A stretch of DNA of 64,000 nt from Candidatus Omnitrophota bacterium (GTDB lineage: Bacteria; Omnitrophota; Gorgyraeia; JABMRN01; RBG-13-46-9), in NCBI GenBank assembly GCA_020346285.1, contig CP070780.1:1113021-1177020 (forward strand), written 5' to 3'. The first letter of the stretch is position 1, and every line of letters starts with the position of its first letter. The notes below the pieces were generated by a model that made no database searches, was not told the DNA's origin, and saw nothing but the letters and a program-made list of their open reading frames with translations. Below, piece by piece: positions 5,759-64,000 of this stretch. Made by a program: the position numbers and the translations under genes.

Positions 5759-6313
5759 ATGAGTGAAGAATTGGAAAAAGCCCAGGATATACTTTTGGGC
5801 AAGGTGAACCAACTATGCGCTAAATTCGGGCTCAATAATGTAATGGCCCAACTTTACATCGTACTATACTTACAGGGTAAGTCCATGTCGCTTGATGCCA
5901 TGGTTGAGCGGCTTAAGATTAGCAAGGGAAGCGTAAGCGTCAATATAAGGGCCCTTGAAAGATACGGTGCTGTAAGAAAAGTATGGGTTAAAGGCTCCAG
6001 GAAAGACTTTTATGAGGTAGAGACAGATATTTCCAGGCTAATAATAGAGAGAGTCAAGTCAATGATACAGGGTCGACTATCTGAAGTGAAGGAAGCGATA
6101 GATGCTTCGCATCGAGCGCTTAACTCCATTAAACCTGTAGATAAAGAAGAAAGGGAGTCTATAAAGGTATTTAACGAAAGGTTAAATCAGCTGAATAAAG
6201 TTCAGAACAAAGCCCGGGGCCTCTTTAATCTATTTAATTCGAGTTTTCTCAACAAAGCGATAGGCCTTAAAACCAAGAGAAATAATAAAGAAGAAATGGT
6301 TGAAATTCATTGA
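5759..6313 (+). CDS. GbsR/MarR-type winged-helix transcriptional regulator
   Basis: LGKVNQLCAKFGLNNVMAQLYIVLYLQGKSMSLDAMVERLKISKGSVSVNIRALERYGAVRKVW.KGSRKDFYE matches the GbsR-family wHTH core. I prefer the ATG at 5759 (GAGGAG RBS) over the upstream GTG at 5726. Confidence 0.65.
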   Translation: MSEELEKAQDILLGKVNQLCAKFGLNNVMAQLYIVLYLQGKSMSLDAMVERLKISKGSVSVNIRALERYGAVRKVWVKGSRKDFYEVETDISRLIIERVKSMIQGRLSEVKEAIDASHRALNSIKPVDKEERESIKVFNERLNQLNKVQNKARGLFNLFNSSFLNKAIGLKTKRNNKEEMVEIH

Positions 6314-7307
6314 AAAGATAGAATTTATGAAATTTACAATAGGTTTTGAGAAAGAAGATACGAAAAAACTCCATAAAATGTGGGATGAAATCATAAAAAC
6401 GCACAAATGGTCAGAAGGAAAGTTTACTCAAATGTTTGAGGAAAGATGGAATGCCTGTAACGATGCGGATTCCGTGGCCTTTTCAAGCTGGGGAGGTGCC
6501 GCATTGGCTGTGTTGGAGTTTTTTAATGTGAAGGGAAAAACAGTGCTTTGTCCCGCCAACACATTTATGGCCACGCCTCTCAGTATCATGAAAGCAGGGG
6601 GTAAGGTTCAATTTGTGGATTGCAATAAGAATGACCTTTGTATGAGCGCGGAAGATTTAAAAGAAAAAATAAATAAATATAATCCATTTGCCGTATTTAT
6701 AGTACATATTGGAGGGCATATAGCATTCCAGATAGAGGAAATAGCAAAATTATGCAAAGAAAAAGGCATTATATTGATTGAAGATTGCGCGCATAGCCAT
6801 GGCGCTTCCTGGAGGGGTCGAAAAGCGGGCACATGGGGGAATGCCGGTATATATTCTTTTTATTCCACAAAAACCATTTCCACAGGCGAAGGCGGCATGC
6901 TGGTTACCAGAAACAAGGATCTTCTAAATTACGCCAAAAAATACAGAAATTACGGAAAATTCGAATACGAAGTAGAGGGCTTAAATTACAGAATGAATGA
7001 GTTTACCGCAGCGGTCGGCTGCGTCCAGGTCAATAGATTGGATGAAATCGTTGATTGGAAAAATGCATACGCCAGAAAATATCTGGACCCCGAATATCCC
7101 AACAGAGTCAATTTTCCTGAAGGAATGAAATCCGGCTATTATAAGTATATCGTATTCGATGAAATTGAGAAATCCACGGGAAAGGTATACGATAAACCCT
7201 GCCATCGAATATTGAAAAAGAGCGATAGTCTGCCGAATACCGATTGGATCGCAAAGAATCATTGGTGTGTTCCCATTTATTACAAGGGTTCTTCTACGCC
7301 AAAGTAG
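6300..7307 (+). CDS. DegT/DnrJ/EryC1/StrS-family PLP-dependent aminotransferase (short N-terminus)
   Basis: 335 aa. IEDCAHSHGASWRGRKAGTWGNAGIYSFYSTKTISTGEGGMLVT...; EGLNYRMNEFTAAVGCVQVNRLDEIV. The N-terminal region is shorter than in typical approximately 380-aa homologues. Confidence 0.8.
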   Translation: MKFIEKIEFMKFTIGFEKEDTKKLHKMWDEIIKTHKWSEGKFTQMFEERWNACNDADSVAFSSWGGAALAVLEFFNVKGKTVLCPANTFMATPLSIMKAGGKVQFVDCNKNDLCMSAEDLKEKINKYNPFAVFIVHIGGHIAFQIEEIAKLCKEKGIILIEDCAHSHGASWRGRKAGTWGNAGIYSFYSTKTISTGEGGMLVTRNKDLLNYAKKYRNYGKFEYEVEGLNYRMNEFTAAVGCVQVNRLDEIVDWKNAYARKYLDPEYPNRVNFPEGMKSGYYKYIVFDEIEKSTGKVYDKPCHRILKKSDSLPNTDWIAKNHWCVPIYYKGSSTPK

Positions 7308-7312
7308 AATTT

Positions 7313-7372
7313 CACAGTAGCTGTGCTTCGAAGAATTCTACGAAGCATAGCATCAATGAAATTTCTACTGTG
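7313..7372 (+). promoter_or_regulatory. nested inverted repeat (potential stem-loop) in the largest intra-array intergenic gap
   Basis: Outer arms are CACAGTAG (7313-7320) and CTACTGTG (7365-7372). The inner imperfect palindrome GCTTCGAAGAATTCTACGAAGC (7325-7346) is centred on GAATTC. It lies in the 87-nt gap between 7307 and 7395. Confidence 0.3.
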
Positions 7373-7394
7373 GCGAAGTAGAAAGGGAGGAAAA

Positions 7395-8348: not shown

Positions 8349-9017
8349 ATGAAAAAAATTTTAATTATTGCCCCGCACATGGACGATGAAGTTCTTGGAT
8401 GCGGCGGCACGATATTAAGGTATACCGAAGAGAAGAAGGATGTCTTTATATGTTTTATAGCCAATAGAGCGTACCGTCACCGAATTGATAAAAATAAAAA
8501 CAGAATTCAGAAAAAACATACGCTTCTCGCAAAAAGGATTTTAGGCTATAAAGAAGCGGTATTTTATGAATTAAACGACGAACGGCTCGATATATCGGTT
8601 CAGGACATAATAATTTTGCTTGAATGCTATGTGAACAAGATACAGCCTGGCGCGGTGTACATCCCCTTTATGGGCGATAACAATCAGGACCATAGGGCAG
8701 TTTTTGATGCGGCAAGGGTTGCATTGAGGCCTGCCGCGACACCTTTTGTAAATAGTGTATATATGTATGAAATCCCGTCTTCAACAGAACAGTCACCCCC
8801 CTTAAAAGAAAGCGCATTTCTTCCAAATTACTATGTAGATATAACTAAGTACATTGACAAAAAGACGAAGGCCTTTAGCTCCTATAAAGACGAAAGACGA
8901 AAATATCCCCATCCCCGTTCCGAAAGGGCTATCAGGGCCCTGGCCCAGAAACGGGGTGTTGAAATAGGATTTAAATATGCGGAGGCCTTCATGGTTTTAA
9001 GGGAGAAAGCTCGATGA
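8349..9017 (+). CDS. PIG-L/LmbE-family N-deacetylase
   Basis: ILIIAPHMDDEVLGCGGTILRY is the hallmark (A/S)PHxDDE..G.GG motif of the LmbE/PIG-L family. Confidence 0.8.
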   Translation: MKKILIIAPHMDDEVLGCGGTILRYTEEKKDVFICFIANRAYRHRIDKNKNRIQKKHTLLAKRILGYKEAVFYELNDERLDISVQDIIILLECYVNKIQPGAVYIPFMGDNNQDHRAVFDAARVALRPAATPFVNSVYMYEIPSSTEQSPPLKESAFLPNYYVDITKYIDKKTKAFSSYKDERRKYPHPRSERAIRALAQKRGVEIGFKYAEAFMVLREKAR

Positions 9018-9655
9018 TACTCGGAATAACCCCGGCTCGCGGAGGAAGTAAAGGCATACCGAGGAAAAACATTAAAGAGATCGCCGGTAAGCCTTTAATC
9101 GCATGGACGATAGAAGCGGCGAAGTCGGCAAAATTACTCGATAGATATATTGTCTCTACGGAAGATACGGAGATCGCCCGAGTCTCGCGAAAATACGGGG
9201 CTGAAATATTAAAAAGGCCGGCATGCCTTGCAACTGATAAGGCCTCAACACTTGGCGTGCTCCAACATGCGGTTCGGCAAATTCCTTGTGATATTGTAGT
9301 GCTTCTTCAGGCTACGTCTGCAATAAGAAAATCCACCCTTATCGATGAGTGCATAAGGGAATTTATAGATAATAAATATGACTCCTTATCCACTGGTTTT
9401 ATGTGCAAATATGTGGAATATGCAAAGAACGAGCTTCGAAGGCAGGATATTAAAGGATTCTTTCATGATGATGGCAATGTCTATGTACTAAAAGCTGACC
9501 TTGTCAGAAAGGGAGACCGCTACGGTAGAAAGACCGGGAGGAAAATCGTAAGCCGGTGGGAGAACGTGGAGATAGACGATGAATTCGATTTTTGGCTAAC
9601 CGAGAAAATTCTGAAGGATAGTTATAAAGAAGTAATTAGAGAGATATGCGCGTAA
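9014..9655 (+). CDS. acylneuraminate (nonulosonate) cytidylyltransferase, CMP-NulO synthetase family
   Basis: ILGITPARGGSKGIPRKNIKEIAGKPLIAWTIEAAKSAKLLDRYIVSTEDTEIA matches the N-terminal signature of the CMP-NeuAc/CMP-Pse/CMP-Leg synthetases (CTP_transf_3). Confidence 0.8.
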   Translation: MILGITPARGGSKGIPRKNIKEIAGKPLIAWTIEAAKSAKLLDRYIVSTEDTEIARVSRKYGAEILKRPACLATDKASTLGVLQHAVRQIPCDIVVLLQATSAIRKSTLIDECIREFIDNKYDSLSTGFMCKYVEYAKNELRRQDIKGFFHDDGNVYVLKADLVRKGDRYGRKTGRKIVSRWENVEIDDEFDFWLTEKILKDSYKEVIREICA

Positions 9656-10365
9656 CGATACATCAACCGGAACATATGCCGTGGCCCGGATTTTTCCACA
9701 AGATAAACATGGCGGATACATATGTGGTTCTGGATAATGTTCAATATCGAAGGCGATATTTCCAAAATAGGAATAAGATCAGGACTGCGGATGGCTGGCA
9801 GTGGGTAACAGTTCCTTTAGAAAAAGAAACAAGGGATAGACTGTTAATAAAAGATGCCAGGATCTGGAAGGAAAATTTAAAATGGAAAAGCAAGAATCTC
9901 GAAAGCATTTATCACAACTACCGAAAAGCCGAATACTTTATATATTACTGGAATGGATTCGAGTCTATTTATAATAGAGATTATTTTTACCTGGCAGATT
10001 TCAATCTCGCTCTTTTGAAATTTTTCTTTGAAAAGCTGAAAATCAGGTGCGAAGTCCGGCGGGCTTCGGAAATGGATATTTCCGGCAGGAAGGGGGATTT
10101 GATATTTAATATCTGTAGAGCCTTAAAAGCAAAAAAATATATTTCCGGCATTTCCGGAAAGGAATATTTAAATCTAAAAGATTTTAAGAAAGTGGGGATA
10201 GGGGTAGTTTTTCAGGAATTTCACCACCCGGTTTACAAACAATTACATAAACCTTTTATTGCATGCATGTCTATAATTGACCTTTTATTTAATTACGGAG
10301 ATAGAAGCCTCAATATTATCAGGGGTAAGGGTGGTGTCCCCTTGATGGAAGAGGTAATCCTTTAA
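9646..10365 (+). CDS. WbqC-like family protein (O-antigen cluster associated; function unknown)
   Basis: MRVTIHQPEHMPWPGFFHKINMADTYVVLDNVQYRRRYFQNRNKIRT.DGWQWVTVPL matches the WbqC-like family N-terminal consensus. Confidence 0.75.
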   Translation: MRVTIHQPEHMPWPGFFHKINMADTYVVLDNVQYRRRYFQNRNKIRTADGWQWVTVPLEKETRDRLLIKDARIWKENLKWKSKNLESIYHNYRKAEYFIYYWNGFESIYNRDYFYLADFNLALLKFFFEKLKIRCEVRRASEMDISGRKGDLIFNICRALKAKKYISGISGKEYLNLKDFKKVGIGVVFQEFHHPVYKQLHKPFIACMSIIDLLFNYGDRSLNIIRGKGGVPLMEEVIL

Positions 10366-11241
10366 ATGGGGAAGACTATTATAATAGCGGAAATAGGCGA
10401 GTGTTTTAACGGAGATCTGGAGGTAGCAAAAAAACTAATGTTTGCAGCGAAGAACGCGGGGTGTGATATCGCAAAATTTCAAACACTTGACTATGAGAAT
10501 ATTCAGGAAAATGATCCGGAGTCGGATTGGTTTAAAAAAATTGCGCTTACCGTCGAGAAAATTAATCTCTTGATTAAATATGCCGATGAAACAGGCATAG
10601 ATATCCTCTTTTCGCCAGAAAATTTAAAGACTGCAAAGTGGTTAATAAGGTCAGGTTTGAAAGATGTTAAAATCGCAAGCAACACCATGCAAGATAAGGA
10701 ATTAATCAAGTTTATTAATTGCCATTTTGAACATGTTTTTATGTCAACTGGCATGGCTTTGCTTGAAGAGGTTAAGGATGCTGTGGATAGCTTAAACAAA
10801 GTTAGCGAGCTATATATAATGCATTGTGTTTCCGAGTATCCGACAGGGCCCCTTTTAGAAAAGAGAGGCCTTAAGGCATTATCCCATGATGATGTGAGGC
10901 TTAATATGATGAAAATGCTTATGGAAGAGTTTCCGCGGTACAAGATAGGATATTCGGACCATACGCAAGGGATACTCGCGCCTCTAGCAGCGGTGGCCAT
11001 GGGCGCAAAGGTAATCGAAAAACATATCACCCTTGACAGAAAGACACCTATCGAAAACTTCTTAAAAGGCAAGGAATATCTCGGAACGGACCATATTCTT
11101 TCAATAGAGCCGGATGAACTGAAGGAGATGGTAAGAAGAATACGGGAGATGGAGAGGATGTTCGGCACTAATAAATGGGAACGTTCCGAAGGCGAATATA
11201 TGTTAAGGAATTTTTTGAGAGGACGGTTTGCAAGTAAATAA
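10366..11241 (+). CDS. NeuB-family nonulosonic acid synthase, TIM-barrel catalytic domain only (no SAF/antifreeze-like domain)
   Basis: TIIIAEIGECFNGDLEVAKKLMFAAKNAGCDIAKFQT is the NeuB N-terminal signature. It is only 291 aa and the next gene overlaps its 3' end, so there is no room for the approximately 70-aa C-terminal SAF domain. Confidence 0.75.
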   Translation: MGKTIIIAEIGECFNGDLEVAKKLMFAAKNAGCDIAKFQTLDYENIQENDPESDWFKKIALTVEKINLLIKYADETGIDILFSPENLKTAKWLIRSGLKDVKIASNTMQDKELIKFINCHFEHVFMSTGMALLEEVKDAVDSLNKVSELYIMHCVSEYPTGPLLEKRGLKALSHDDVRLNMMKMLMEEFPRYKIGYSDHTQGILAPLAAVAMGAKVIEKHITLDRKTPIENFLKGKEYLGTDHILSIEPDELKEMVRRIREMERMFGTNKWERSEGEYMLRNFLRGRFASK

Positions 11242-12217
11242 AGTTAAGGTTTTATTCAAAACCAAAGGCGGGCATAAAGAGGGGATGGGGGATATTACCT
11301 CTTCTTTAGCACTGGCGGAGGCATTTAGAGATCAAGGCCATGAAGCAATGTTTATTGTCAATGATAACAAGAGTGCTATAGAGTTAATTTCTCAAAAAGG
11401 TTTCAAATATAAAATGGCCGAGACTCAAACAGAATTAGCGACATCGGTCGGCAAGGAGCCAATAGATATAGCGATTTTAAATCAGTTAAATACGCCCACC
11501 GACGAAACGCAAATCTTCAAGGCTAATTCCAAGATGCTCGTTACAATTGATGATACAGGGGATAGTGCTGAATTAGCCGATATCTCTTTTAACGTTCTTT
11601 ACCCCATAGAAAGCGCTTATGTTGACTTTAAGTACATTGCACTTTTTCCAGTATTCCAGGAGAAACATAATATTTCACGGGTGATAAAAAAAGAGGTGGA
11701 AACAATACTTGTTACCCAGGGAGGAAGCGATACTTATGGTTATACGCCGAAGATCATAAAAGGGTTATACAAAGTGACTCCCGGAATAGTCATAAACGTG
11801 GTACTCGGGCCAAACTTTTCTCACCACCTGCACCTTAAACAAATTCTGGAGGATGCACCGCGGAGTTTTAATATTATAAAAGGAAAAAACGATCTGTCGA
11901 ATTTAATGCTGCAAGCCGACATGGCTATAAGCGGAGGAGGTAATATATTGTTTGAACTGGCGTGTCTTGGCGTTCCGACCATCGTTATATGCGGCGAACG
12001 TTTCGAAGAAAAAACAGCCAAGAGATTACAAGGAGAAGGTTTTGGCATAAATTTGGGTTTCGGAAAATATGTTAAGGAAAAAGATATATGCGGTGCGGTA
12101 ACCGAGCTCATGAATGACACAAAAAAACGCAGGCAAATGAGCGCGAAAGGCATGGATCTTATTGACGGATACGGCGCGACAAGGGTTGCGGAATTAATAA
12201 TAAGACAATTGTTATGA
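11228..12217 (+). CDS. PseG/SpsG-like UDP-sugar hydrolase (GT-B-like)
   Basis: The N-terminus KVLFKTKGGHKEGMGDITSSLALAE.F resembles the G.GH..R...LA motif of PseG. A central ILVTQGGSD motif and a C-terminal ISGGGNILFELACLGVPTIVI are also PseG-like. Confidence 0.55.
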   Translation: MQVNKVKVLFKTKGGHKEGMGDITSSLALAEAFRDQGHEAMFIVNDNKSAIELISQKGFKYKMAETQTELATSVGKEPIDIAILNQLNTPTDETQIFKANSKMLVTIDDTGDSAELADISFNVLYPIESAYVDFKYIALFPVFQEKHNISRVIKKEVETILVTQGGSDTYGYTPKIIKGLYKVTPGIVINVVLGPNFSHHLHLKQILEDAPRSFNIIKGKNDLSNLMLQADMAISGGGNILFELACLGVPTIVICGERFEEKTAKRLQGEGFGINLGFGKYVKEKDICGAVTELMNDTKKRRQMSAKGMDLIDGYGATRVAELIIRQLL

Positions 12218-13275
12218 GGATAAATAAGGACCAGTTTAGTTTTTCAAAACGGAAAAATCTTATTTTTTCTTATAAAAGAGGATATGGGGCAATACCGGCG
12301 TACATTGTCAATCGTTTTCAGTGGTATTTTTATCCGAAATTGCATTACGTTTCTAAGTTTCCGATTCACCTGGATGTCGAAATTTCCAATGAATGTAACA
12401 TGCAATGCCCGATGTGCTTTAGGACCACGGAATTTTTTAAAAAGAACATAGAAAAGGGTTTCATGGAATTTTCTTTATTTAAAAAAGTAGTCAACGAAGC
12501 TCGGCGTTATGGTATTTATTCGATAAGAATAAGCCACAGGGGGGAGGCTTTTATTCACCCCAATGTTATAGAGTTTATCAGATATGCCAAGCGTTCCGGG
12601 ATTAAGGAAGTCGCTGCTCTCAGCAATATCTTGGCGCTTCCGCCTTTGCTTTTTGAAGAGGCAATGAAAGCAGGCCTGGACTGGCTCACTATTTCATTTG
12701 ACGGATTGGGCCCGACTTATGAGAAGATTAGACGCCCGGCGAAATTCAAAGATTCTTACGAGAAGGTGAAAGCATATAAGCGAATAAAAGAGAAAGCCCA
12801 TTCACATAAACCCGTTATAAAGATTCAAAGTGTATGGCCAGCCGTTAGAACCTGCGCAGAAGAATTTATCGAGAGTTTTGAACCGTATGTTGACGGCATA
12901 GCTTCTAATCCGTTGATTGACTATTTGCATAAAGACCACCCCCAAGACATAGAGTACTGGGAGAATTTTGATTGCCCTACTCCATATCAAAGATTAACAA
13001 TTCTTTTTAACGGCTTGGTACCATATTGCCACAACGATGAATTTTGTACATATATTATAGGCGATATCAAAAAAGACACAATTCGTAACGTATGGCATGG
13101 TCCGGACATGACAAAAGTAAGAAAAGCTCACAGGGCGTGTCAGGGGAGGACTGTCTTAAGCGCATGTAAACATTGTTTTTTACCCCGCAAGGCCGAGCCG
13201 GTTATAGAACATATAGGCGATAGAAAATTGGTTGTGGAGAAATACACGAAAAGAACACAAAAAATCGGTGCTTGA
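12214..13275 (+). CDS. radical SAM protein with C-terminal SPASM/twitch-like Cys-rich domain
   Basis: FPIHLDVEISNECNMQCPMC is a Cx3Cx2C radical SAM motif. The C-terminus has additional Cys clusters (CPTP...YCHND...C...CQGRTVLSACKHC). Confidence 0.8.
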   Translation: MRINKDQFSFSKRKNLIFSYKRGYGAIPAYIVNRFQWYFYPKLHYVSKFPIHLDVEISNECNMQCPMCFRTTEFFKKNIEKGFMEFSLFKKVVNEARRYGIYSIRISHRGEAFIHPNVIEFIRYAKRSGIKEVAALSNILALPPLLFEEAMKAGLDWLTISFDGLGPTYEKIRRPAKFKDSYEKVKAYKRIKEKAHSHKPVIKIQSVWPAVRTCAEEFIESFEPYVDGIASNPLIDYLHKDHPQDIEYWENFDCPTPYQRLTILFNGLVPYCHNDEFCTYIIGDIKKDTIRNVWHGPDMTKVRKAHRACQGRTVLSACKHCFLPRKAEPVIEHIGDRKLVVEKYTKRTQKIGA

Positions 13276-13290
13276 TTGATAGGATATAAA

Positions 13291-14973: not shown

Positions 14974-15014
14974 TAATAAAAAAAACTACATTGCAATATT
15001 CGGGAATATAAACC

Positions 15015-15989: not shown

Positions 15990-16005
15990 TTATGGAGTTT
16001 AACCG

Positions 16006-22549: not shown

Positions 22550-22590
22550 AAAGCAGAGATTTTTAATTGAAAAATTGGAGGGAAAAGTAT

Positions 22591-25762: not shown

Positions 25763-25779
25763 TAAAAAAATCGAGGGAC

Positions 25780-56397: not shown

Positions 56398-56421
56398 AGC
56401 CATAAAGGATTTACTAAAGAA

Positions 56422-57423
56422 ATGAATGGTCAGTTTTTTTGGTTAAATTGTTCTCAGAAGGATATCTGGAAAAAGTGGCTCTTAAAACTACCGCATGAGA
56501 AAAGAGACATTTATTATGAGCCGGACTATGTCGGGCTCTATGCAGAAGGCACGAGGAGCAGTGCGGACTGTTATATATATGCAAGAAAAGATAATATTTA
56601 TATTTATCCTTTTATAGTGCGCCCTATTCCTCAAATTGTCGGATATTTCGATATCTCCACCTCCTACGGATACGGTGGGCCTATCTTTAATACCGAAGAT
56701 CCTGTTTTTTTGAATCAAGCGTATCAATGTTTTTACCAGGAGGCTTTAAGACGAAACATAATAGCCGAAATAGTTAAGTTCCACCCTTTATTATGTAATC
56801 ATCCGCCGCTTGCAAATATTTTCAAAGGTAATATTATGAAAATGTGTTCTACTGTTTATGTGGATATAAATGTCGATGAAGGCTGCAGATGGAGAAATAT
56901 ATATACCCATGCAAATAGGAAAAATATAAATAAAGCTAAACGAAATAATATTGAGGTTAAGATCGATCAGAGCGAAGAAGCTTGGCAGGCTTTTAAATTT
57001 CTGTATGAGGCTACTCTGAGCGTAAATAAAGCCGATAAATTTTACTTTTTTTCACCTAAATATTTTGAAGGTATACAAGAACATCTTGCCGATAATTATC
57101 TCTTAGTTTCATGCGCAATTGAGGGAAAGATAATATCAGTGATGCTGGTGCTTCTTGGCACAGTTTATGCCCATTGCCACTTAATCGGCACCCAGAGGGA
57201 GCTTATGACTATGGGGGTTAATAATTTACTTCATCATGAACTTATTTTATGGTGTAAAAAGAATGGATATAAAGAGCTTCATATTGGCGGAGGGCGAAGC
57301 GACAGCGACGATGATTCGCTGCTCAGGTTTAAGAAGAATTTTTCAGATAAGACTTCTGCTTTATATGTAGGAGAATCTGTTTTGAATTACGAAATATACA
57401 ATAAGTTATACAGGAAACGATAG
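56422..57423 (+). CDS. FemAB-like / GNAT-fold acyl- or aminoacyl-transferase family protein
   Basis: 333 aa with a two-lobed architecture. The N-terminal lobe has YGYGGPIF, and the C-terminal lobe has a GNAT-like core (LVSCAIEGKIISVMLVLLGTVYAHCHLIGT..). The assignment is moderate. Confidence 0.45.
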   Translation: MNGQFFWLNCSQKDIWKKWLLKLPHEKRDIYYEPDYVGLYAEGTRSSADCYIYARKDNIYIYPFIVRPIPQIVGYFDISTSYGYGGPIFNTEDPVFLNQAYQCFYQEALRRNIIAEIVKFHPLLCNHPPLANIFKGNIMKMCSTVYVDINVDEGCRWRNIYTHANRKNINKAKRNNIEVKIDQSEEAWQAFKFLYEATLSVNKADKFYFFSPKYFEGIQEHLADNYLLVSCAIEGKIISVMLVLLGTVYAHCHLIGTQRELMTMGVNNLLHHELILWCKKNGYKELHIGGGRSDSDDDSLLRFKKNFSDKTSALYVGESVLNYEIYNKLYRKR

Positions 57424-57426
57424 GCC

Positions 57427-58359
57427 TTGATGATGATTGTTGAAAAAAAACAAAAAGATATAGAACGGTATGTTTTTAATTGGTCTTATTTTAACTCAGC
57501 AAGAGAAGGCTTTAGGCATATACTGGAAACCGAGGGACTAAACGGCAGGAAAATATTAGTTCCTCTTTACGTAGGATATAGTACGAAGGAAGGGTCTGGT
57601 GTTTTTGAACCGATAAGAGAAGCTAAAATGCAGTATGTTTTTTATAATCTGGATGGATGCCTCAATATTAATCTGGAAGATTTGAAGAGAAAAATTAAGG
57701 AAAATCAAAACAATGTTTTATTAATAATACACTATTTCGGATTTACAGATGGAAACCTAAAGAAAATAAAACAATATGCCAAGGAACACGGTATGATAAT
57801 TATTGAAGATTTTGCCCAGGCTTTTTTTACATTTTGGTTAAATCCCATAATTGATTTTGATTATGGTATATTCTCTATACATAAATTGTTTCCTGTAGAT
57901 TCAGGAGGCATGGTAATCGGTAGAAAAAAAATAAAGAGCAGCATTAATAACGGCAATATTAAGTATAATTTATTTAACTATAACATTAAAGAGATAATAC
58001 AAAGACGTATAGAAAATTATAAGTATATCTTGTACAGGATTAAAAAAATGACCGGCTTATATAAAATCACTGTTCTCAAAGAAAAATTGCAGGGGGTTGT
58101 CCCCCATAGTTTTCCGATTTTACTTCCCGACCGTAATATTAGGGATCAGTTGTATTTTCAAATGAATGAAGAAGGTTATGGAGTGATAAGCTTATATCAT
58201 ACATTAATAGATGAAATAGAGAGTCCTTTTACCATTGAGCATAAAATTTCAAGCAGGATATTAAACCTTCCTGTTCATCAGGATGCTGAAAAAGAGGACT
58301 TGGGCAATATGATCGATAGGATGTTTACGATTATCAATGACTATAATAAAAATGTATAG
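57427..58359 (+). CDS. DegT-like PLP-dependent enzyme (aminotransferase/dehydratase fold), N-terminally short
   Basis: GRKILVPLYVGYS...; LIIHYFGFTDGNLKKIKQYAKEHGMIIIEDFAQA...IDFDYGIFSIHKLFPVDSGGMVI follows the DegT core order, including the candidate PLP lysine (SIHK). It lacks the first approximately 50 aa of typical members. Confidence 0.45.
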   Translation: MMMIVEKKQKDIERYVFNWSYFNSAREGFRHILETEGLNGRKILVPLYVGYSTKEGSGVFEPIREAKMQYVFYNLDGCLNINLEDLKRKIKENQNNVLLIIHYFGFTDGNLKKIKQYAKEHGMIIIEDFAQAFFTFWLNPIIDFDYGIFSIHKLFPVDSGGMVIGRKKIKSSINNGNIKYNLFNYNIKEIIQRRIENYKYILYRIKKMTGLYKITVLKEKLQGVVPHSFPILLPDRNIRDQLYFQMNEEGYGVISLYHTLIDEIESPFTIEHKISSRILNLPVHQDAEKEDLGNMIDRMFTIINDYNKNV

Positions 58360-58380
58360 AGAGGGCTTAGAGAATAAAAT

Positions 58381-59061
58381 ATGACCTGGGATGATATCTG
58401 GGAAAAGGTATTTCAAGAGAATGAATGGGGCAGATATCCGGATGAGGGTCTTATCAGGTTTATCGCGAGAAATTTTTTCCAGAGAACAGATAGAGGAAAT
58501 ATCAATATATTGGAAGTTGGATGCGGTCCGGGACCTAATATCTGGTATCTTTCGAGAGAAGGCTTTGACGCTTATGGAATTGACGGCTCTACCAGTGCTA
58601 TTGAAAAGGCAAAAGGGAGGTTGGGCGAAGAGGGTTTAAAAGCATATCTAAGGATAGGGGATATAATAAGCTTACCATATAAAGATAATTTTTTTGACGC
58701 GGTTATAGATATTGAGTGTCTATACAGTAATTCGAGGGAGGATACAAAAACCATTCTCGGAGAGATAAAACGCGTATTAAAGAAAGACGGTTTATTCTAT
58801 AGCAGAACCCTTACGGATGAGATGTATTTAGGAAAAACGCAGACTAAAGTAGGTCATCTGGAGTACAAAAACATATCTGACGGGCCGATAGCTGGAAAAG
58901 GATTTGCAAGACTTATGGATAAGGTAGAAATATCGAATTTATATGGATCTTTTTTCGATATAATATCAGTTGATAAACTCGAATATACCAAAAATAACGG
59001 TTCAATGAAGATTAACGAGTGGATTATTGTTTGCCAAAATAGTCGAAAAAATAGAAAATGA
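58381..59061 (+). CDS. class I SAM-dependent methyltransferase
   Basis: Motif I is NILEVGCGPGPNIWYLSREGFDAYGIDGS. Motif II is FDAVIDIECL. Motif III is LKKDGLFY. Confidence 0.8.
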   Translation: MTWDDIWEKVFQENEWGRYPDEGLIRFIARNFFQRTDRGNINILEVGCGPGPNIWYLSREGFDAYGIDGSTSAIEKAKGRLGEEGLKAYLRIGDIISLPYKDNFFDAVIDIECLYSNSREDTKTILGEIKRVLKKDGLFYSRTLTDEMYLGKTQTKVGHLEYKNISDGPIAGKGFARLMDKVEISNLYGSFFDIISVDKLEYTKNNGSMKINEWIIVCQNSRKNRK

Positions 59062-60062
59062 ATAGAATTTTTATAATAGCGGAAGCGGGTATTAATCATA
59101 ACGGAAGCATTGTAAATGCAAAGAAAATGATAGATGGGGCGTCCGAGGCCGGCGTAGATGCAGTAAAATTTCAGACCTTTAAGGCGGAGAAGGAGATAAG
59201 TAAATATGCGCCCAAGGTTGAATACCAGAAAAGAACTACTGGCGCTGAAGAATCTCAGCTTGATATGGCTAAGAGATTTGAATTAAAGCAGAGCCAGTTT
59301 AAAGAGCTTTATAATTACTGTAAAGAGAAAAGAATTATTTTTTTATCCTCCCCATCCGATTTAGAGAGTATAGATTTTTTAATAGAACTTGAGCTCGATA
59401 CTTTAAAAATTCCTTCAGGAGAAATAACCAATCTGCCCTTTTTAAGGAAGATAGGAAGTTTAGGAAAGAAAGTTATAATGTCAACTGGGATGGCAGATTT
59501 AGAAGAGATAAAAGATGCTTTAGATATTTTAACCGAGGCAGGAACTCCCAAAAAAAATATAACTATTTTACATTGCAATACAGAGTATCCCACTTCTATG
59601 GAGGACGTAAATCTCTTAGCTATGCTTACAATTAGAGATACTTTTAAAGTAGAAGTTGGATATTCTGACCATACACTTGGAATAGAAGTTCCAATTGCAG
59701 CCGTGGCTTTGGGGGCAGCTATTATAGAAAAGCATTTTACACTCGATAGAAACATGGAAGGACCCGATCATAAAGCATCTTTAGAACTCGATGAACTAAA
59801 AGCTATGGTGAAGGCAATAAGAAATATAGAGAAAACTCTCGGCAATGGGATTAAAAAGCCTTCACCTTCAGAGATTAAAAACATAATACTAGTTCGTAAA
59901 AGCATAGTAGCAACAAGACCTATCAAAGAAGGAGAGATTTTTACAGTGAAAAACATTACAACTAAAAGACCGGCAACAGGAATAAGTCCAATGGAGTGGG
60001 ATAAACTACTTGGGACAACTGCCAAAAGAGATTTTAAGAAAGATGAGGTAGTGGAGTTATGA
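59058..60062 (+). CDS. NeuB-family nonulosonic acid synthase with C-terminal SAF domain (NeuB/LegI/PseI-like)
   Basis: IFIIAEAGINHNGSIVNAKKMIDGASEAGVDAVKFQTF; YSDHTLGIEVPIAAVALGAAIIEKHFTLDR; the C-terminal SAF domain begins KSIVATRPIKEGEIFTVKNITTKRP. Confidence 0.85.
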   Translation: MNRIFIIAEAGINHNGSIVNAKKMIDGASEAGVDAVKFQTFKAEKEISKYAPKVEYQKRTTGAEESQLDMAKRFELKQSQFKELYNYCKEKRIIFLSSPSDLESIDFLIELELDTLKIPSGEITNLPFLRKIGSLGKKVIMSTGMADLEEIKDALDILTEAGTPKKNITILHCNTEYPTSMEDVNLLAMLTIRDTFKVEVGYSDHTLGIEVPIAAVALGAAIIEKHFTLDRNMEGPDHKASLELDELKAMVKAIRNIEKTLGNGIKKPSPSEIKNIILVRKSIVATRPIKEGEIFTVKNITTKRPATGISPMEWDKLLGTTAKRDFKKDEVVEL

Positions 60063-61234
60063 AAAGAAAGGTTTGTATTGTTACAAGCTCAAGAGCAGAA
60101 TATGGTCTTTTAAGACCATTACTTGAAGAAATCGCAAATGATAAAAATTTAACTTTACAACTAATAGTTACCGGGATGCATTTATCACCTGAATTTGGAT
60201 TAACTTATAGAGAAATAGAAAAAGATGGTTTTGCCGTTGATGAAAAAATAGAAATTTTATTAAGTTCGGATACCCCCGCCAGTATTTCAAAATCTATGGG
60301 TCTGGCAATGATAAGTTTTTCCGAAGCTTATGGAAGGCTGAAATCAGATATTATTGTTGTACTCGGTGATAGATTCGAATTCCTTAGTGCGGTTGCAGCA
60401 GCTCTTATAAGCAGGATTCCTGTTGCCCATATTGCTGGTGGCGAAGTTACCGAGGCTGCTTTTGACGATTCTATCCGCCATTCTATAACCAAAATGAGTC
60501 ATTTGCATTTTACTATTATAGAAGATTATAGAAAAAGAGTTATTCAATTAGGAGAAGATCCCCAAAGGGTTTTTAATGTAGGTGCACTGGGAATAGATAA
60601 TATAAAAAAATTAAAGCTCTTTTCTAGAGAAGCTTTGGAAAAGGAGTTAAATTTTAAATTCAATAAACACAATTTGTTAGTTACTTTTCATCCTGTGACA
60701 TTGGAAAATAATACTTCCCCGCAGCAGTTCAAAGATTTACTTAGTGCATTAGAAAACCTGGAGGATACATTTATCATTTTTACTAAAGCAAATGCGGATC
60801 CAGGGGGAAGAATAATTAATAAAATGATCGATACCTATGTATCAAAAAATTGTAGTAAATCTGCGGCCTTTACTTCCTTGGGACATTTAAAATATTTATC
60901 AATACTGCAATTTGTCGATGCTGTAGTCGGGAATTCATCAAGTGGGATTGTAGAAGCTCCTAGCTTTAAGATGGGTACTATCAACATTGGTGGCAGACAG
61001 AAGGGAAGAGTAGAGCCTAAAAGTATAATTGATTGCCAACCCACAAAAGAATCAATTATCAAAGCCTTTGAAAAATTGTATTCTAAGGAATTTCAGAGAA
61101 GTCTCAAGAAGGTTGTCAATCCTTACGGCGATGGTAATGCTGCAAAAAGAATTAAAAATATACTAAAAAACTATGACATCAATAATATCTTAAAAAAGCC
61201 CTTCTTTGATATAGATTTTGGGTATAGGAGATAG
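60059..61234 (+). CDS. hydrolysing UDP/GDP-N-acetylhexosamine 2-epimerase (NeuC/LegG family)
   Basis: KVCIVTSSRAEYGLLRPLLEEI; VVLGDRFEFLSAVAAALISRIPVAHIAGGEVTEAAFDDSIRHSITKMSHLHF is the conserved NeuC core. Confidence 0.85.
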   Translation: MKRKVCIVTSSRAEYGLLRPLLEEIANDKNLTLQLIVTGMHLSPEFGLTYREIEKDGFAVDEKIEILLSSDTPASISKSMGLAMISFSEAYGRLKSDIIVVLGDRFEFLSAVAAALISRIPVAHIAGGEVTEAAFDDSIRHSITKMSHLHFTIIEDYRKRVIQLGEDPQRVFNVGALGIDNIKKLKLFSREALEKELNFKFNKHNLLVTFHPVTLENNTSPQQFKDLLSALENLEDTFIIFTKANADPGGRIINKMIDTYVSKNCSKSAAFTSLGHLKYLSILQFVDAVVGNSSSGIVEAPSFKMGTINIGGRQKGRVEPKSIIDCQPTKESIIKAFEKLYSKEFQRSLKKVVNPYGDGNAAKRIKNILKNYDINNILKKPFFDIDFGYRR

Positions 61235-61255
61235 ACATGTTGCAGAAAATGAAAA

Positions 61256-62494
61256 ATGATAGATCGTTTAAAGAGGGTTTGTTTGAAAGAAATTGATATA
61301 GATTATAATGGGCTGTTTAGACACCTCGAAGATTTAAGGAAAGTTTTGCTTGTTACGACTGGCAGGACTGGCTCAGATTTTTTTCAAAGTCTTTTAGACG
61401 GTCATTCGGAAATTTTGCAGTTTACAGGTATGTGGAAGCATCATTGGTGGTGGAAGCAAGCGAAATGCAAAGAAAATTTACCAGACTTAATTAATGAATT
61501 TATCTGGTATACATGTAGTTTTACTTTTTGTAATCATATTGCAAAATTTAAGTCTTGCTATAATAAGCAGGAACGCTGGGGTCAACTGGGAGCTAATAAA
61601 AACGAATCTTTCGAAGTAGATATGGACACCTTTAAGAATCATATGTTGAACATCTTAACCGATAAGGAGTCGAATAGTAAAAATTTCTTTTTAGCAGTTA
61701 ATTTGGCTTACGGTCTTACTACAGGAGTTGACATTAAGAAAACAAAAATAATTTTTTATCACATTCACCATTTCGAGAGATTGAAAGATTTTAAGGAAGA
61801 TTTCCCAGATTTTGACATAATTTGCACAGTAAGAGAACCACGGAATACTTTGGTCTCAGGCATAGAGCATTGGAAAAAATATGATATTAACACATATAAT
61901 TCCAGGTTTTTCTATCAGCTTTTAAAGAGAATTTTTGAAGAGTCTGAACCAATACTGCAAGATACGGGAAACATCAAGACCTTAAAATTGGAAGACTTAC
62001 ATTTATTCTCTAAAGAAACGCTAAGTGAATTTTGTCAGATGTATAATTTGGAGCTTGAGAACTGCATGTTCGAATCTTCTTATCACGGCAAAAAATGGTG
62101 GGGTGATGTTTTATCCGGCAAATATTTAGATGGCTTTAACAAAGATATTAATGAGCGGAAATGGAGAGATAAATTATTTTTTTATGACAATCTTCTAATA
62201 GAATTTATTTTGGAAGATAGATTAAGACATTATGGATATTTTATTGAGAATAAAATATCAAGAATATATTTAATCCTCATTTGGTTTTTAGTCTTTTTGC
62301 CAATGAAATATGAATTAAAGATTTTGGCTTACAATTTCAGAAGTAATAGAACCGCAAACGCCAAACTTTTAGTATTATGCAAGGGCTGGGGGTTTTATAT
62401 ACTGAGAATTCTGCTATATTTTAAATTTATTTTGAAAAAAGTTACTAAAAAAATTTTCTTGGCAGATTTTTTTATTCAAGAAAAATATCGTTAA
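61256..62494 (+). CDS. hypothetical protein with sulfotransferase-like P-loop and hydrophobic C-terminus
   Basis: VLLVTTGRTGSDFF resembles the 5'-PSB P-loop. TVREPRNTLVSGIEHW resembles the 3'-PB motif. The C-terminal approximately 60 aa are hydrophobic (ISRIYLILIWFLVFLPM...ILRILLYF). This is a weak assignment. Confidence 0.35.
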   Translation: MIDRLKRVCLKEIDIDYNGLFRHLEDLRKVLLVTTGRTGSDFFQSLLDGHSEILQFTGMWKHHWWWKQAKCKENLPDLINEFIWYTCSFTFCNHIAKFKSCYNKQERWGQLGANKNESFEVDMDTFKNHMLNILTDKESNSKNFFLAVNLAYGLTTGVDIKKTKIIFYHIHHFERLKDFKEDFPDFDIICTVREPRNTLVSGIEHWKKYDINTYNSRFFYQLLKRIFEESEPILQDTGNIKTLKLEDLHLFSKETLSEFCQMYNLELENCMFESSYHGKKWWGDVLSGKYLDGFNKDINERKWRDKLFFYDNLLIEFILEDRLRHYGYFIENKISRIYLILIWFLVFLPMKYELKILAYNFRSNRTANAKLLVLCKGWGFYILRILLYFKFILKKVTKKIFLADFFIQEKYR

Positions 62495-62530
62495 TAAAGA
62501 TAGGTTGACTAACTTTTAGAGAAGGTAGAT

Positions 62531-63316
62531 ATGAAAGCAATTATTATTGCTGCGGGAATGGGTTCGCGACTGGATCCTTTAACCAATGATGCGCCTAAAT
62601 GTATGTTAGAATTAAACGGCAAGACTTTACTCCAGCATCAGATTGAGGCATTGAGGGGTGCTGGCATAAATAGAATATCTGTAATTAAAGGATATAAAAA
62701 AGAGATGATAGACTATCCTGATTTGGTTTATTATTTCAATGACGATTATCAAGATAATAATATACTGCACTCCTTATTTTATGCAAAAGAAGAAATGAAT
62801 GATGAATTTATAGCCGCTTATTCAGATATCCTTTATAGTAGAGAGATAGTAGAGAGATTGCTTGATAGTAAAGAAGATATCTCAATAGTAGTCGACATAG
62901 ACTGGCGTGGATATTATGAAGGTAGAACAGATCATCCAATTGAAGAAGCAGAAAACGTCATTTTTGATGCTGATAATAATGTGGTTAAGATTGGTAAAAT
63001 TTTACCCGATAAAGATGCTGTTCACGGTGAATTCATTGGTATGATGAAGTGTTCAAAGAAAGGCGCGCTTATTTTTAGGAAATATTTTAACCAGCTAAAA
63101 AAGCGTTATGCCGGAAAGCCTTTTCAGAGGGCTTCTGTATTTAAAAGGGCATATTTGACCGATATTTTTCAGGATATGGCTGATTCCGGTATTAAAATCG
63201 GCTGTGTAATTATTGAAAGGGGCTGGATAGAGATAGATACTATTCAAGATTTTAAGAGGGCCGAAAAGGAATTTTCCAAGAAAGAAGAGGTATTTTTTAA
63301 AAATGAAAAACAATAA
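62531..63316 (+). CDS. LicC-family nucleotidyltransferase (CTP:phosphocholine-type cytidylyltransferase fold)
   Basis: MKAIIIAAGMGSRLDPLTNDAPKCMLELNGKTLLQHQIEALRGAGINRISVIKGYKKEMIDYPDLVYYFNDDYQDNNILHSLFYAKEEM is co-linear with S. pneumoniae LicC (MKAIILAAGLGTRLRPMTENTPKALVQVN.KPLIEYQIEFLKEKGI.DIIIIVGYLKEQFDYL...VFNDKYADYNNFYSLYLVKEEL). Confidence 0.65.
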   Translation: MKAIIIAAGMGSRLDPLTNDAPKCMLELNGKTLLQHQIEALRGAGINRISVIKGYKKEMIDYPDLVYYFNDDYQDNNILHSLFYAKEEMNDEFIAAYSDILYSREIVERLLDSKEDISIVVDIDWRGYYEGRTDHPIEEAENVIFDADNNVVKIGKILPDKDAVHGEFIGMMKCSKKGALIFRKYFNQLKKRYAGKPFQRASVFKRAYLTDIFQDMADSGIKIGCVIIERGWIEIDTIQDFKRAEKEFSKKEEVFFKNEKQ

Positions 63317-64000
63317 GACATTTTGGAATATTTGGACATCATATGCCACATATTACTTTGGAAAAGTAAATTTAAGTATAGTTGTTCCTGCGCTATTGGC
63401 TACATATAAAGACTTGAATTTATATAGTGTTGGGCTGGTGTCGAGCGGATTTTTCTTTGCCTACGCACTGGGCCAGTTCTTGCACGGTCAAATTTCAGAG
63501 CGATACAATCCATTTGTGTATATTTCGTTGGGGCTTATTAGCTCAGCGATTATGAACCTGATCCTTGGGTTTTCTGCTGGTTTTTTCATAATATTATTTA
63601 TAGGAGAGACTCTTGATGGTTTTTTTCAATCAATGGGATGGTCATCTTGCGTAAGAGCAAATGCCTTGATACAAAAGGCTGAAGATAGGGAAAGGTCATC
63701 CACAGTATTGGGAACATCATATCAGGTAGGTAATTCTGTGGCTTGGTTGATATCTGCTTTTGCTGTGGGTCATTGGGGTTGGCAAGCAGGTTTCTGGGTG
63801 GCAAGCATTTTCCTGTTGGCAAGAGGGATATTGTTGTTATTGACAAAACCAAAGATAGAAATAGCGCCCCCTCAAAAAGTGAAAGCGCAAGTAAGAAATA
63901 CTTTATCCTTTCCGATTGTATTGAGCGGTGTATCATTATGCTTACTAAATATGGTCAGGTTCGGAGTTATTACATGGATACCGTTATATTTATTTCAGAA
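63303..64000 (+). CDS. MFS transporter, organophosphate:phosphate antiporter (GlpT/UhpC-like) family, 3'-truncated by the window end
   Basis: The ATG at 63303 overlaps the upstream stop. LGQFLHGQISERYNPFVYISLGL parallels GlpT (G.VSDRSNPRVFL). GFFQSMGWSSCVRA parallels GWFQGMGWPPCGRT. Multiple TM segments follow, and the frame is open to nt 64000. Confidence 0.6.
   Translation, partial: MKNNKTFWNIWTSYATYYFGKVNLSIVVPALLATYKDLNLYSVGLVSSGFFFAYALGQFLHGQISERYNPFVYISLGLISSAIMNLILGFSAGFFIILFIGETLDGFFQSMGWSSCVRANALIQKAEDRERSSTVLGTSYQVGNSVAWLISAFAVGHWGWQAGFWVASIFLLARGILLLLTKPKIEIAPPQKVKAQVRNTLSFPIVLSGVSLCLLNMVRFGVITWIPLYLFQ

Follow-up and report, generated by a model that had tools for sequence, protein, structure and literature searches.

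The question raised by this locus is what a cytidylyltransferase and a transporter, encoded by two overlapping genes at the tail of a very large surface-glycan cluster in a Candidatus Omnitrophota genome (contig CP070780.1, positions 1,113,021 to 1,177,020 of the forward strand; this whole stretch of 64,000 nucleotides is the window), do together, and whether choline has a part in it. A first-pass annotation of the window had proposed that a choline/phosphocholine theme links a GbsR-family regulator at the head of the cluster to the two genes at its tail; the three genes do lie where it placed them:

5759–6313, + strand: GbsR/Mj223-type MarR-superfamily winged-helix regulator (184 aa from the ATG at 5759; 195 aa if translation starts at the GTG at 5726)
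62531–63316, + strand: nucleotidyltransferase (NTase), a LicC/PntC-superfamily cytidylyltransferase of 261 aa, assigned by sequence, profile and structure-model matches
63303–64000, + strand: GlpT-like transporter of the major facilitator superfamily (MFS), related to the organophosphate:phosphate antiporter (OPA) branch; the first 232 of 398 codons are in the window

Our best reading is that the NTase and the MFS are a kinase-free salvage variant of the head-group tailoring known from the Lic and Pnt systems, that is, a cassette that would import a small phosphorus-containing head group and activate it with CTP for attachment to a surface glycan; we hold this reading with moderate confidence.

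The two genes overlap, the MFS gene starting 14 bases inside the end of the NTase gene (63303 versus the stop at 63316), and the pair is 65–88% identical across phyla. The MFS matches MFS_1 (E 8e-27), its best match in the PDB is GlpT (1pw4, E 3.6e-21; 25% identity to E. coli GlpT), and the PgtP, UhpC and GlpT models are its best models (E 1e-24 to 1e-17, all far below their equivalog cut-offs); this is the similarity expected of the OPA branch, to which the first-pass annotation had also referred the gene. Homologues that are 72–88% identical occur in genomes labelled as Acidobacteriota, Deltaproteobacteria, Thermodesulfobacteriota, KSB1, Neomarinimicrobiota and Aminicenantes, and the protein is ~76% identical in Methanocellales; the NTase-MFS pair is widespread and mobile and crosses the divide between bacteria and archaea. 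A metagenome scan with the full MFS protein gave 80 further loci, from which dereplication at 95% left 74 distinct MFS relatives (related loci are cited below by their L numbers). Their neighbors were labelled from seeds, domain by domain; plain clustering merged the NTase, the MFS, TagD and phosphoenolpyruvate (PEP) mutase through fusion proteins. A cytidylyltransferase is encoded at most four genes from the MFS in 64 of the 74 relatives, that is, in all 64 with readable flanks; in the remaining 10 the MFS is the first or second gene of a short contig. The cytidylyltransferase is of the TagD type (PF01467) only in 37 loci, of the LicC type only in 20, and both types are present in 7; in three loci (L055, 557–2194; L075; L120) the MFS and a TagD-type domain, the latter C-terminal, are fused in single 545-aa proteins. 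That two unrelated folds interchange beside the same MFS, and are fused to it, is strong evidence that transporter and cytidylyltransferase are one functional unit, in which uptake would precede CMP activation in the cytoplasm. Gene identities, overlap, conservation, pairing, fusions and partner genes are direct observations.

The partner genes suggest what follows activation. Transferase-type genes are found near the MFS in 41 of the 74 relatives (LicD in 20, CDP-alcohol phosphatidyltransferase in 17, TagF-like in 3 and X412, a sulfotransferase-like protein described below, in 3); LicD-family transferases had been expected as partners from the start, and they flank the pair in these 20 relatives, not in the window. 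In several loci the neighbors of the MFS include genes for a phosphate-selective porin (Porin_O_P) and for DUF2490, consistent with an anion as the cargo.

The NTase carries an N-terminal signature of the G-x-G-x-R-L type (AAGMGSRL, residues 7–14), and its best sequence match in the PDB is LicC from S. pneumoniae (1jyk; E 3.9e-20 as a single sequence, 7.3e-26 and 94 bits as a profile). The co-linearity with LicC that had been claimed extends over residues 1–107 and 207–250; the central ~100 residues diverge and are not alignable by sequence. With an AlphaFold (AF2) model built from 30 homologues (pLDDT 88.9), Foldseek ranks PntC first (6pd2, E 2.8e-18, TM 0.76), followed by the inositol-phosphate cytidylyltransferase (IPCT) of T. 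maritima and by LicC (TM 0.74 over 258 columns), so that the margin of PntC is small; the E-values for sugar-1-phosphate (RmlA-type) enzymes are ~10–100 times weaker than those for PntC and LicC. The NCBIfam matches of the NTase are to sugar-1-phosphate nucleotidyltransferase models, all far below their cut-offs and confined to the N-terminal nucleotide-binding part.

In LicC, D105 and D192, and in PntC, E104 and E196, face the amine of the head group, and LicC also has an aromatic box that includes W191 (PMC6697681). We took the equivalent positions from HMMER family-profile alignments to 1jyk and 6pd1 together with the motif D-A-D / E-S-D / Y-S-D, not from superposed structures. In these alignments LicC D105 and PntC E104 correspond to Y97 of the NTase, which is invariant in 30 sequences, and LicC Y190-W191-D192 corresponds to Y208-L209-T210, followed by an invariant D211; both the choline-pocket residues of LicC and the amine-contacting Glu of PntC are missing from the aligned positions. 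This suggests that the NTase does not have a simple amine site of the LicC or PntC type, and its pocket may instead be compatible with an amine-free head group (e.g., a methyl- or hydroxyalkyl-phosphonate). Many aromatic residues are invariant in the NTase family (Y97, W125, Y129, F168, Y208, W232).

The genome contexts of the NTase point to phosphonates. It has more than 3,800 homologues, of which the first 120 are 62–84% identical to it, an unusual conservation for an enzyme of a glycan cluster; its clade (the CYTIDYLYLTRANSFERASE clade) is 48–84% identical across bacterial phyla and Methanocellales. In many homologues the N-terminus carries an HTH_3 domain. Scanning a single genome of each species (GTDB) gave 34 loci with NTase orthologues, in hosts that include Omnitrophota, Aminicenantes, Thermodesulfobacteriota, Planctomycetia, Alphaproteobacteria (including Pelagibacteraceae), Gemmatimonadales and Methanocellales; the neighbors in these loci were clustered and representatives were annotated. 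Downstream of the NTase we found PhnD-PhnC-PhnE in 13 of the 34 loci, phosphonate synthesis genes in 8–10 and the same MFS as in the window in 7; six loci combine the NTase with TagF-like Glyphos_transf genes. The PhnE match (276 bits) exceeds the cut-off of its model; PhnD scores 208 bits against an equivalog cut-off of 261.1 and clears the broader model for phosphate/phosphite/phosphonate substrate-binding proteins. The synthesis genes include an MPnS/HEPD homologue (6b9s, E 6.6e-81), an Fe-dependent alcohol dehydrogenase (Fe-ADH) of the phosphonate type, phosphonopyruvate decarboxylase (Ppd, 364 bits) and a fusion of PEP mutase with another NTase domain (329 bits); the orthologues that adjoin ppm, ppd, 2-aminoethylphosphonate (AEP) aminotransferase or MPnS-like genes are 48–75% identical to the NTase of the window.

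A neighbor-joining distance tree places the MFS, PhnCDE and synthesis contexts, interleaved, in one clade with the window NTase; outside this clade are the window's own CBS-NTP_transferase, the phosphoramidate-type enzyme of L128 (full-length, 33% identical to the window NTase), the PEP-mutase-fused domains and a PntC-like enzyme. The first-pass annotation had offered such a phylogeny as a check of its proposal, with a grouping among sugar-1-phosphate nucleotidyltransferases as the refuting outcome: the NTase does not cluster with those enzymes, nor does it cluster with choline systems; its companions are phosphonate systems. In one locus (L133) a 75%-identical orthologue is clustered with a PEP mutase fusion, Ppd and an AEP aminotransferase (its top match, TIGR03301, reaches 293 bits against a cut-off of 360.8). 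Another NTase, a CDP-alcohol phosphatidyltransferase, DUF2490, a related MFS and B12 radical SAM enzymes are encoded in this cluster as well; the radical SAM genes flank the NTase orthologue, and their best model is the Sden_1168 P-methyltransferase (307–370 bits).

Three further observations concern the same clade. In SAR11 (Pelagibacteraceae single-cell genomes L018, L020, L023, L025 and L029) and in other Alphaproteobacteria (L006, L008), a helix-turn-helix (HTH)-fused NTase is followed by PhnD-PhnC-PhnE, often with an adenosine-5'-phosphosulfate (APS)-kinase-like gene in the vicinity; this suggests that the phosphonate is imported for activation and not for cleavage of the C-P bond. PEP mutase is fused to a TagD-type domain in L110 (461–1747) and to a LicC/MobA-type domain in L034 (11457–13142) and L133 (1–917), that is, both cytidylyltransferase folds have been recruited independently to phosphonate pathways. 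Finally, the JGI names of many clade members are 'choline kinase' (P0005, P0012 and P0016 among others) and, for P0115, 'phosphoenolpyruvate phosphomutase'; these labels have probably spread from fusion proteins, and the domain content gives them no support. NCBI names the NTase 'phosphocholine cytidylyltransferase family', and for this clade neither that name nor 'choline kinase' is supported.

The size of the head group is suggested by the other partner fold. The profile of the TagD-type partners scores 99 bits with human ethanolamine-phosphate cytidylyltransferase (ECT), 96 with the cytidylyltransferase domain of Fom1, 73 with TagD and 46 with choline-phosphate cytidylyltransferase; with ECT and Fom1 as their nearest solved relatives, these partners point to a two-carbon head group, although, their fold being different from that of the window NTase, this evidence bears on the cassette and not directly on the window enzyme. 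The Fom1 domain acts on 2-hydroxyethylphosphonate, and the TagD-type/PEP mutase fusion of L110 sits directly beside an MFS. (We had considered the Fom1 domain as a LicC-like enzyme; a PDB search, 5x3d, identified it as TagD-like.) A methyltransferase whose closest characterized relatives are phosphoethanolamine N-methyltransferases (PMT) is encoded in 13 of the 74 relatives, where its gene separates that of the cytidylyltransferase from that of the MFS. Each half of the proposed cassette has a characterized counterpart that handles AEP: AepP is a GlpT-like MFS permease for this compound (PMC8316502), and PntC, which is LicC-like, makes CMP-AEP (PMC6697681). The most likely substrate is, in our view, either phosphoethanolamine or a phosphonate with one or two carbons; phosphocholine, a less likely possibility, might form in those lineages that have a PMT-like gene. 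The caveat in the first-pass annotation, that the LicC family also activates phosphonates and phosphoethanolamine, has become its better lead.

Which way the MFS transports, what it carries, which transferase acts and how the cluster is regulated we infer as follows. The GlpT-like MFS would import a small head group that is already phosphorylated or C-P-bonded, likely methyl-, 2-hydroxyethyl- or 2-aminoethyl-phosphonate (C1–C2) or phosphoethanolamine; the NTase would join it to CMP, giving CDP-X or a CMP-phosphonate; and a transferase would then attach it to the surface glycan, rich in nonulosonic acids, that the other genes of the cluster produce. One transporter would, in this way, replace both the choline permease and kinase of Lic and the PEP mutase pathway of Pnt while keeping the logic of both, and the GbsR/Mj223-type regulator would probably repress the glycan operon in response to a ligand other than choline.

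The likeness to Lic (LicA-LicB-LicC-LicD of S. pneumoniae and H. influenzae) consists in a LicC-superfamily enzyme beside a transporter in a glycan locus, in the sequence of import, CMP activation and transfer to a glycan, and in the LicD that flanks the pair in many relatives. The window differs in having a GlpT-like MFS and no choline kinase, choline permease of the DMT type or LicD; with the MFS in place of kinase and permease, the imported species must already carry phosphorus. Pnt is shared through the structural match to PntC (6pd1/6pd2) and the synthesis genes that adjoin NTase orthologues; in contrast to Pnt, the window has no PEP mutase pathway, and the NTase is 20–22% identical to Tde-PntC. 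No transporter-coupled (salvage) version of Pnt is described by Rice et al. (2019; PMC6697681), and our literature searches on a transporter-coupled Pnt or Lic variant or on CMP-methylphosphonate found nothing relevant. AepP (Murphy et al., 2021; PMC8316502), compared with the window MFS by description and not by sequence, is likewise an OPA-branch MFS recruited for a non-sugar phosphorus compound, and both lack the glycerol-contacting residues of GlpT; however, AepP goes with the catabolic phnWAY and phnWX genes and is nutritional, whereas the MFS family of the window always goes with a cytidylyltransferase and with transferases for surface glycans or lipids. The first-pass annotation is, in sum, supported in so far as the tail pair is an activation module in the sense of Lic and Pnt, with the pairing and the fusions behind it; the choline specificity is not supported, in view of the NTase pocket, the phosphonate partners and the regulator.

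Several facts weigh against the salvage cassette. No recognized head-group transferase (LicD, TagF or CDP-alcohol type) is encoded within the 64-kb window. Searched as a single sequence, the NTase still matches LicC, a phosphocholine enzyme, best. The MFS keeps the Tyr/Trp framework of GlpT and, of the four basic residues of its binding site, only R269, which is invariant; all 14 family members aligned have the replacements R45K, K80Q and H165Y. It is a distinct subfamily whose substrate may differ in charge, and its specificity for an organophosphate is itself deduced. The pair sits among sulfation genes (X412, and an APS kinase in relatives), which could indicate another chemistry. Finally, L110 and L133 encode both PEP mutase and an MFS, so import is not obviously needed there.

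The alternative that survives best is a phosphocholine system, in which the MFS would bring in phosphocholine (or choline would enter by another route), the NTase would make CDP-choline, a LicD encoded downstream would complete the transfer and the regulator would sense choline. It agrees with LicC as the best PDB match and with the NCBI name of the NTase; LicD does flank the pair in 20 of the 74 relatives, the PMT-like enzyme of 13 could make phosphocholine in situ, and the invariant aromatics of the NTase could form a cation-pi box. On the other side are the invariant Tyr at the position of LicC D105 and the Leu and Thr at those of W191 and D192; the TagD-type replacements, which resemble choline-phosphate cytidylyltransferases least (46 bits, versus 99 for ECT); and the phosphonate contexts in which the NTase clade is embedded. 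The remaining objections come from the genes that follow the MFS in relatives and from the regulator.

The first-pass annotation had noted correctly that licA and licD are absent from the window, and had suggested that they lie just downstream. Our seed searches and domain scans of the window found no homologue of licA, licB, licD, TagF-like or CDP-alcohol transferases or PEP mutase; seeds for TagD, PhnD, Fe-ADH, MPnS, APS kinase and the PMT-like methyltransferase also found none, and beyond the NTase, the MFS and X412 the seed searches returned only generic ABC-ATPase and TPP-enzyme matches. The genes that bear on the downstream side are the one directly upstream of the NTase and two farther upstream in the same cluster:

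61256–62494, + strand: X412, sulfotransferase-like (Sulfotransfer_3, 27.4 bits), with a hydrophobic C-terminal region recognized by eye
22567–23562, + strand: sulfotransferase (Pfam Sulfotransfer_1, E 1.3e-07), a true sulfation gene
23546–25762, + strand: fusion of a pyruvate-kinase (PK) barrel, PUA_2 and ATP sulfurylase, 738 aa, assigned by domain scans; sulfate activation

X412 has no sequence match in the PDB; both motifs for binding 3'-phosphoadenosine 5'-phosphosulfate (PAPS), at its 5'-phosphosulfate and its 3'-phosphate, are present (TTGRTGSDFF and VREPRNTLVS), and three lineages have conserved X412 as the gene just before the NTase (70% identical in L043/L044, 25% in L037). In L037 and L043/L044, the closest relatives with long contigs, an APS-kinase-like gene directly follows the MFS; in L037 it is followed by the PK-ATP sulfurylase fusion and a sulfotransferase, as at 22.5–25.8 kb of the window. 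Sugar genes also occur downstream of the MFS in the closest relatives. No licA, licB or licD lies downstream of the MFS in L037 or L043, and LicD is found beside more distant MFS relatives. From the X412-NTase-MFS synteny, the gene just past the window is predicted to encode an APS kinase and not LicA or LicD, which, by the criterion that the first-pass annotation had set, weakens the choline proposal for this lineage. The same PK/PUA_2/ATP sulfurylase fusion is found near the NTase clade in the Omnitrophota locus L037 (12858–15038), where it adjoins the NTase/MFS module, and in a Rhodospirillales locus (L019, 3273–5237), where it adjoins the NTase and MPnS genes. In Candidatus Gorgyraea (L040; NTase 81% identical) a TagF-like phosphotransferase gene is upstream, and DUF2490 lies between the NTase and the MFS.

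The regulator is a member of the GbsR family, as claimed: its best solved relative is Mj223 (1ku9, E 9.9e-18 over residues 16–158), a structural template of the family; it matches the GbsR-family CudC model of NCBIfam with E 4.8e-22 (78.6 bits against a cut-off of 218); NCBI and JGI name its homologues 'GbsR/MarR family' (422 close ones, almost all from Omnitrophota); and it has the winged helix and C-terminal dimerization helices of the family (GbsR, OpuAR, OpcR, CydE, Mj223). The start at ATG 5759 is favored by a 184-aa database entry (P0242) and by the L037 homologue. A promoter-like site precedes the gene:

5642–5670, + strand: TTGACA, 17-nt spacer and TG-extended TATAGT; a consensus match only, ahead of the regulator gene

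This site matches the consensus at 11 of 12 positions and is the best within 5300–6500.

In the family as a whole, the aromatic cage proposed to bind choline or betaine, six Phe near the linker in GbsR, is confined to the osmostress-associated Firmicutes subgroup and is missing in Mj223 and in other subgroups; CydE, a cage-less member, responds to sulfate (PMC6207618). The window regulator aligns to Mj223 across the linker with a gap of only two residues, and no aromatic cluster follows its wing, F95 and Y96 being the sole aromatics in residues 90–130 (the cage was judged absent through the alignment to Mj223, not to B. subtilis GbsR). In the window it is not adjacent to opuA/B/C, gbsAB or cyd genes; it is followed by genes for DegT, an epimerase, PIG-L, a CMP-sugar synthetase, WbqC and NeuB, that is, in contrast to the choline/betaine-sensing Firmicutes subgroup, it lacks the cage and heads a glycan operon. 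Choline sensing by the regulator is, on this evidence, not supported.

All four contexts of regulator homologues that we examined (L037, L128, L129, L131) are glycan genes with the regulator at their head. In L129 the homologue is with DegT, radical SAM and NeuB genes, and in L131 with epimerase, aminotransferase, PglD, NeuB and NeuC genes, in both loci without a head-group module; in L128 it heads a complete look-alike of the O-methyl-phosphoramidate cassette of Campylobacter; and in L037, another Omnitrophota genome, a 55%-identical regulator lies 78 bases upstream of an X432-NTase-MFS-APS kinase block. The family is thus a general head-of-operon regulator of surface-glycan modification in Omnitrophota. 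In the window 57 kb separate the regulator from the module, whereas in L037 the two adjoin, so that co-regulation of the two ends of the window is plausible; of the head-to-tail link first proposed, this regulatory part may stand and the choline part is not supported. Taking the pocket, the partners, the downstream genes and the regulator together, we consider a phosphocholine system unlikely.

In a teichoic-acid-style alternative, sn-glycerol-3-phosphate would be the cargo of the MFS and CDP-glycerol the product of the NTase, and the glycan would receive glycerol phosphate from a TagF-like enzyme. Among solved structures GlpT is closest to the MFS, the TagD type is the commonest MFS partner, and in L040 and L046–48 the pair has TagF-like Glyphos_transf genes as immediate neighbors, besides their recurrence in the six GTDB loci. 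However, no family member keeps K80 or H165 of GlpT and all have Lys in place of R45, ECT and Fom1 outscore TagD as matches of the TagD-type partners, and it is hard to explain why a central metabolite should need a dedicated importer fused to its activating enzyme; the PMT-like methyltransferase, the PhnCDE neighbors and the PEP mutase fusions would also be left unexplained. Import of glycerol phosphate is, therefore, quite unlikely.

The third alternative gives the sulfation-type genes a role in the transfer: an APS-kinase-like enzyme would 3'-phosphorylate the CDP- or CMP-head group to a PAPS-like donor, and the sulfotransferase-fold X412 would transfer the head group from it. There is a precedent, in that the phosphoramidate donor of Campylobacter is CDP-phosphoramidate 3'-phosphate (PMC11800397). 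The order X412-NTase-MFS-APS-kinase-like gene in L037 and L043/44, of which the window shows X412-NTase-MFS, and the PAPS motifs retained by X412 are both as this alternative would have them. APS-kinase-like genes of the PRK05541 type lie beside the NTase clade in the phosphonate clusters L018, L019, L024 and L026, the L019 cluster having a canonical APS kinase as well. In L068, a 269-aa fusion (5493–6302) of a cytidylyltransferase-like segment (residues 3–72) and a full APS-kinase domain (TIGR00455, 183 bits) is encoded two genes upstream of LicD-TagD-MFS.

The comparison with the O-methyl phosphoramidate (MeOPN) pathway of C. jejuni (Cj1415–Cj1418) belongs here, the two loci sharing a LicC-like NTase, an APS-kinase-like gene and methyltransferases in a glycan locus; window scans found no Cj1418-like kinase, Cj1417-like amidohydrolase or Cj1415-like kinase, whereas the set is complete in L128. 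That Omnitrophota cassette (JGI Ga0366829_1000062, 10001–17525) encodes a PRK05541-type APS-kinase-like protein, a PRK05849 PEP-utilizing kinase (827 bits), a C26 amidotransferase whose top match is gamma-glutamyl-CDP-amidate hydrolase, the 33%-identical full-length NTase, a methyltransferase and a sulfatase-family protein. We take Cj1415 to be an APS-kinase homologue and, with the L128 context, the PRK05541 and PRK05849 models to correspond to Cj1415 and Cj1418.

Against a PAPS-like donor, the window and L037 encode ATP sulfurylase and another sulfotransferase, so X412 and the kinase are most simply seen as genuine sulfation enzymes; the kinases of L037 and L043 are not of the PRK05541 type; and the neighbor of the regulator gene in L128 resembles a sulfatase and not a sulfotransferase. 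X412 had been a candidate for the head-group transferase, and the presence of true sulfation genes in the window weakened its candidacy. Most simply, the head-group cassette and a set of sulfation genes are interleaved here, and we regard the PAPS-like donor as very unlikely; if it were real, the donor chemistry of Campylobacter would extend to imported phosphonates and phosphoesters, and sulfotransferase-fold enzymes would transfer phosphorus groups.

That there is no functional unit at all, the NTase being an ordinary sugar-1-phosphate nucleotidyltransferase (as its sub-threshold NCBIfam matches and the RmlA-type Foldseek scores, only 10–100 times weaker, might suggest) and the MFS an unrelated neighbor, is highly improbable in view of the pairing in 64 of 64 informative contexts, the fusion proteins, the interchange of two folds, the PntC, IPCT and LicC structures as top matches and the separate sugar-type CBS-NTP_transferase that the window already encodes outside the NTase clade.

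If the tail pair is the salvage cassette that we favor, many uncultured bacteria and some archaea (Omnitrophota, Aminicenantes, Thermodesulfobacteriota, Planctomycetia and Methanocellales, with a PhnCDE version in SAR11) would carry surface head groups of the phosphonate or phospho-alcohol kind that are scavenged and not self-made. This would be a non-nutritional sink for dissolved phosphonates and phosphoesters that needs no C-P lyase, and it would account for the LicC-like and TagD-like genes of those genomes in which both choline kinase and PEP mutase are missing. The NTase-MFS pair would be a cleaner genomic marker of head-group tailoring than a LicC-like annotation alone, and, the pair being small, very conserved and sometimes fused, in vitro testing should be easy.

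The surroundings of the pair are a single run of genes. From ~5.7 kb to the end of the window all genes are co-directional on the + strand without interruption, and the GC skew is positive throughout; Pfam and NCBIfam scans identify the run as a very large surface-glycan cluster. It encodes three NeuB-family synthases or fragments and NeuC, two CMP-sugar synthetases of the CTP_transf_3 type, several DegT aminotransferases and epimerases/dehydratases, PIG-L, WbqC, GT2, a FemAB-like protein, an ABC transporter of the TMD-NBD type (transmembrane and nucleotide-binding domains), methyltransferases, thiamine-pyrophosphate (TPP) enzymes, an E1 dehydrogenase pair and a split transketolase, in addition to the sulfotransferase and ATP sulfurylase fusion listed above; the sugar-type CBS-NTP_transferase is at 18195–19271. 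The G+C content is 34–36% over 56001–64000 and 38–44% in most of the cluster; the low-G+C tail consists of the FemAB-like, DegT-like, methyltransferase, NeuB, NeuC, X412, NTase and MFS genes. This drop, together with an NTase and MFS that are 65–88% identical in other phyla and in archaea, suggests that the tail arrived as a module by horizontal transfer. Scanned for promoters and terminators, the tail did no better than shuffled sequence.

One further gene of the cluster recurs near the module:

51158–53128, + strand: TIGR04326-type surface-carbohydrate biosynthesis protein, 656 aa (TIGR04326, 243 bits against a cut-off of 250)

Homologues of it are encoded upstream of X412 in L043/L044 and directly upstream of the NTase in L133, and its product is a candidate for an enzyme on the acceptor side.

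At least two nonulosonic-acid routes are encoded (genes at 9014–9655, 10366–11241, 47272–48018 and 59058–61234). The head-side route has a NeuB-like synthase, a PseG-like gene (recognized by eye; the Pfam scan gave no match), WbqC, PIG-L and a CMP-sugar synthetase; the tail-side route has NeuB (506 bits with the NeuB_NnaB model) and NeuC (498 bits). A second CTP_transf_3 gene is at 47272.

Nine radical SAM enzymes are encoded in the cluster, four of them B12-binding (21161–22549, 38376–40013, 49656–51158 and 54952–56397) and three with SPASM domains; the other five genes are at 12214–13275, 15015–15989 (called by eye from a CxxxCxxC motif only), 37302–38372, 41265–42374 and 46280–47272. For the protein encoded at 54952–56397, P-methyltransferase models (Sden_1168, PhpK) are among the lower-ranked matches, behind ApyD, BchE and TIGR04013. 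In the middle of the cluster (25684–27519, 29669–31799, 32631–33848, 33832–35520 and 35541–37300) are encoded two acetolactate-synthase-like TPP enzymes, the E1 alpha/beta pair, the split transketolase and a class I/II aminotransferase; this set suggests that the glycan carries an unusual substituent derived from a keto acid.

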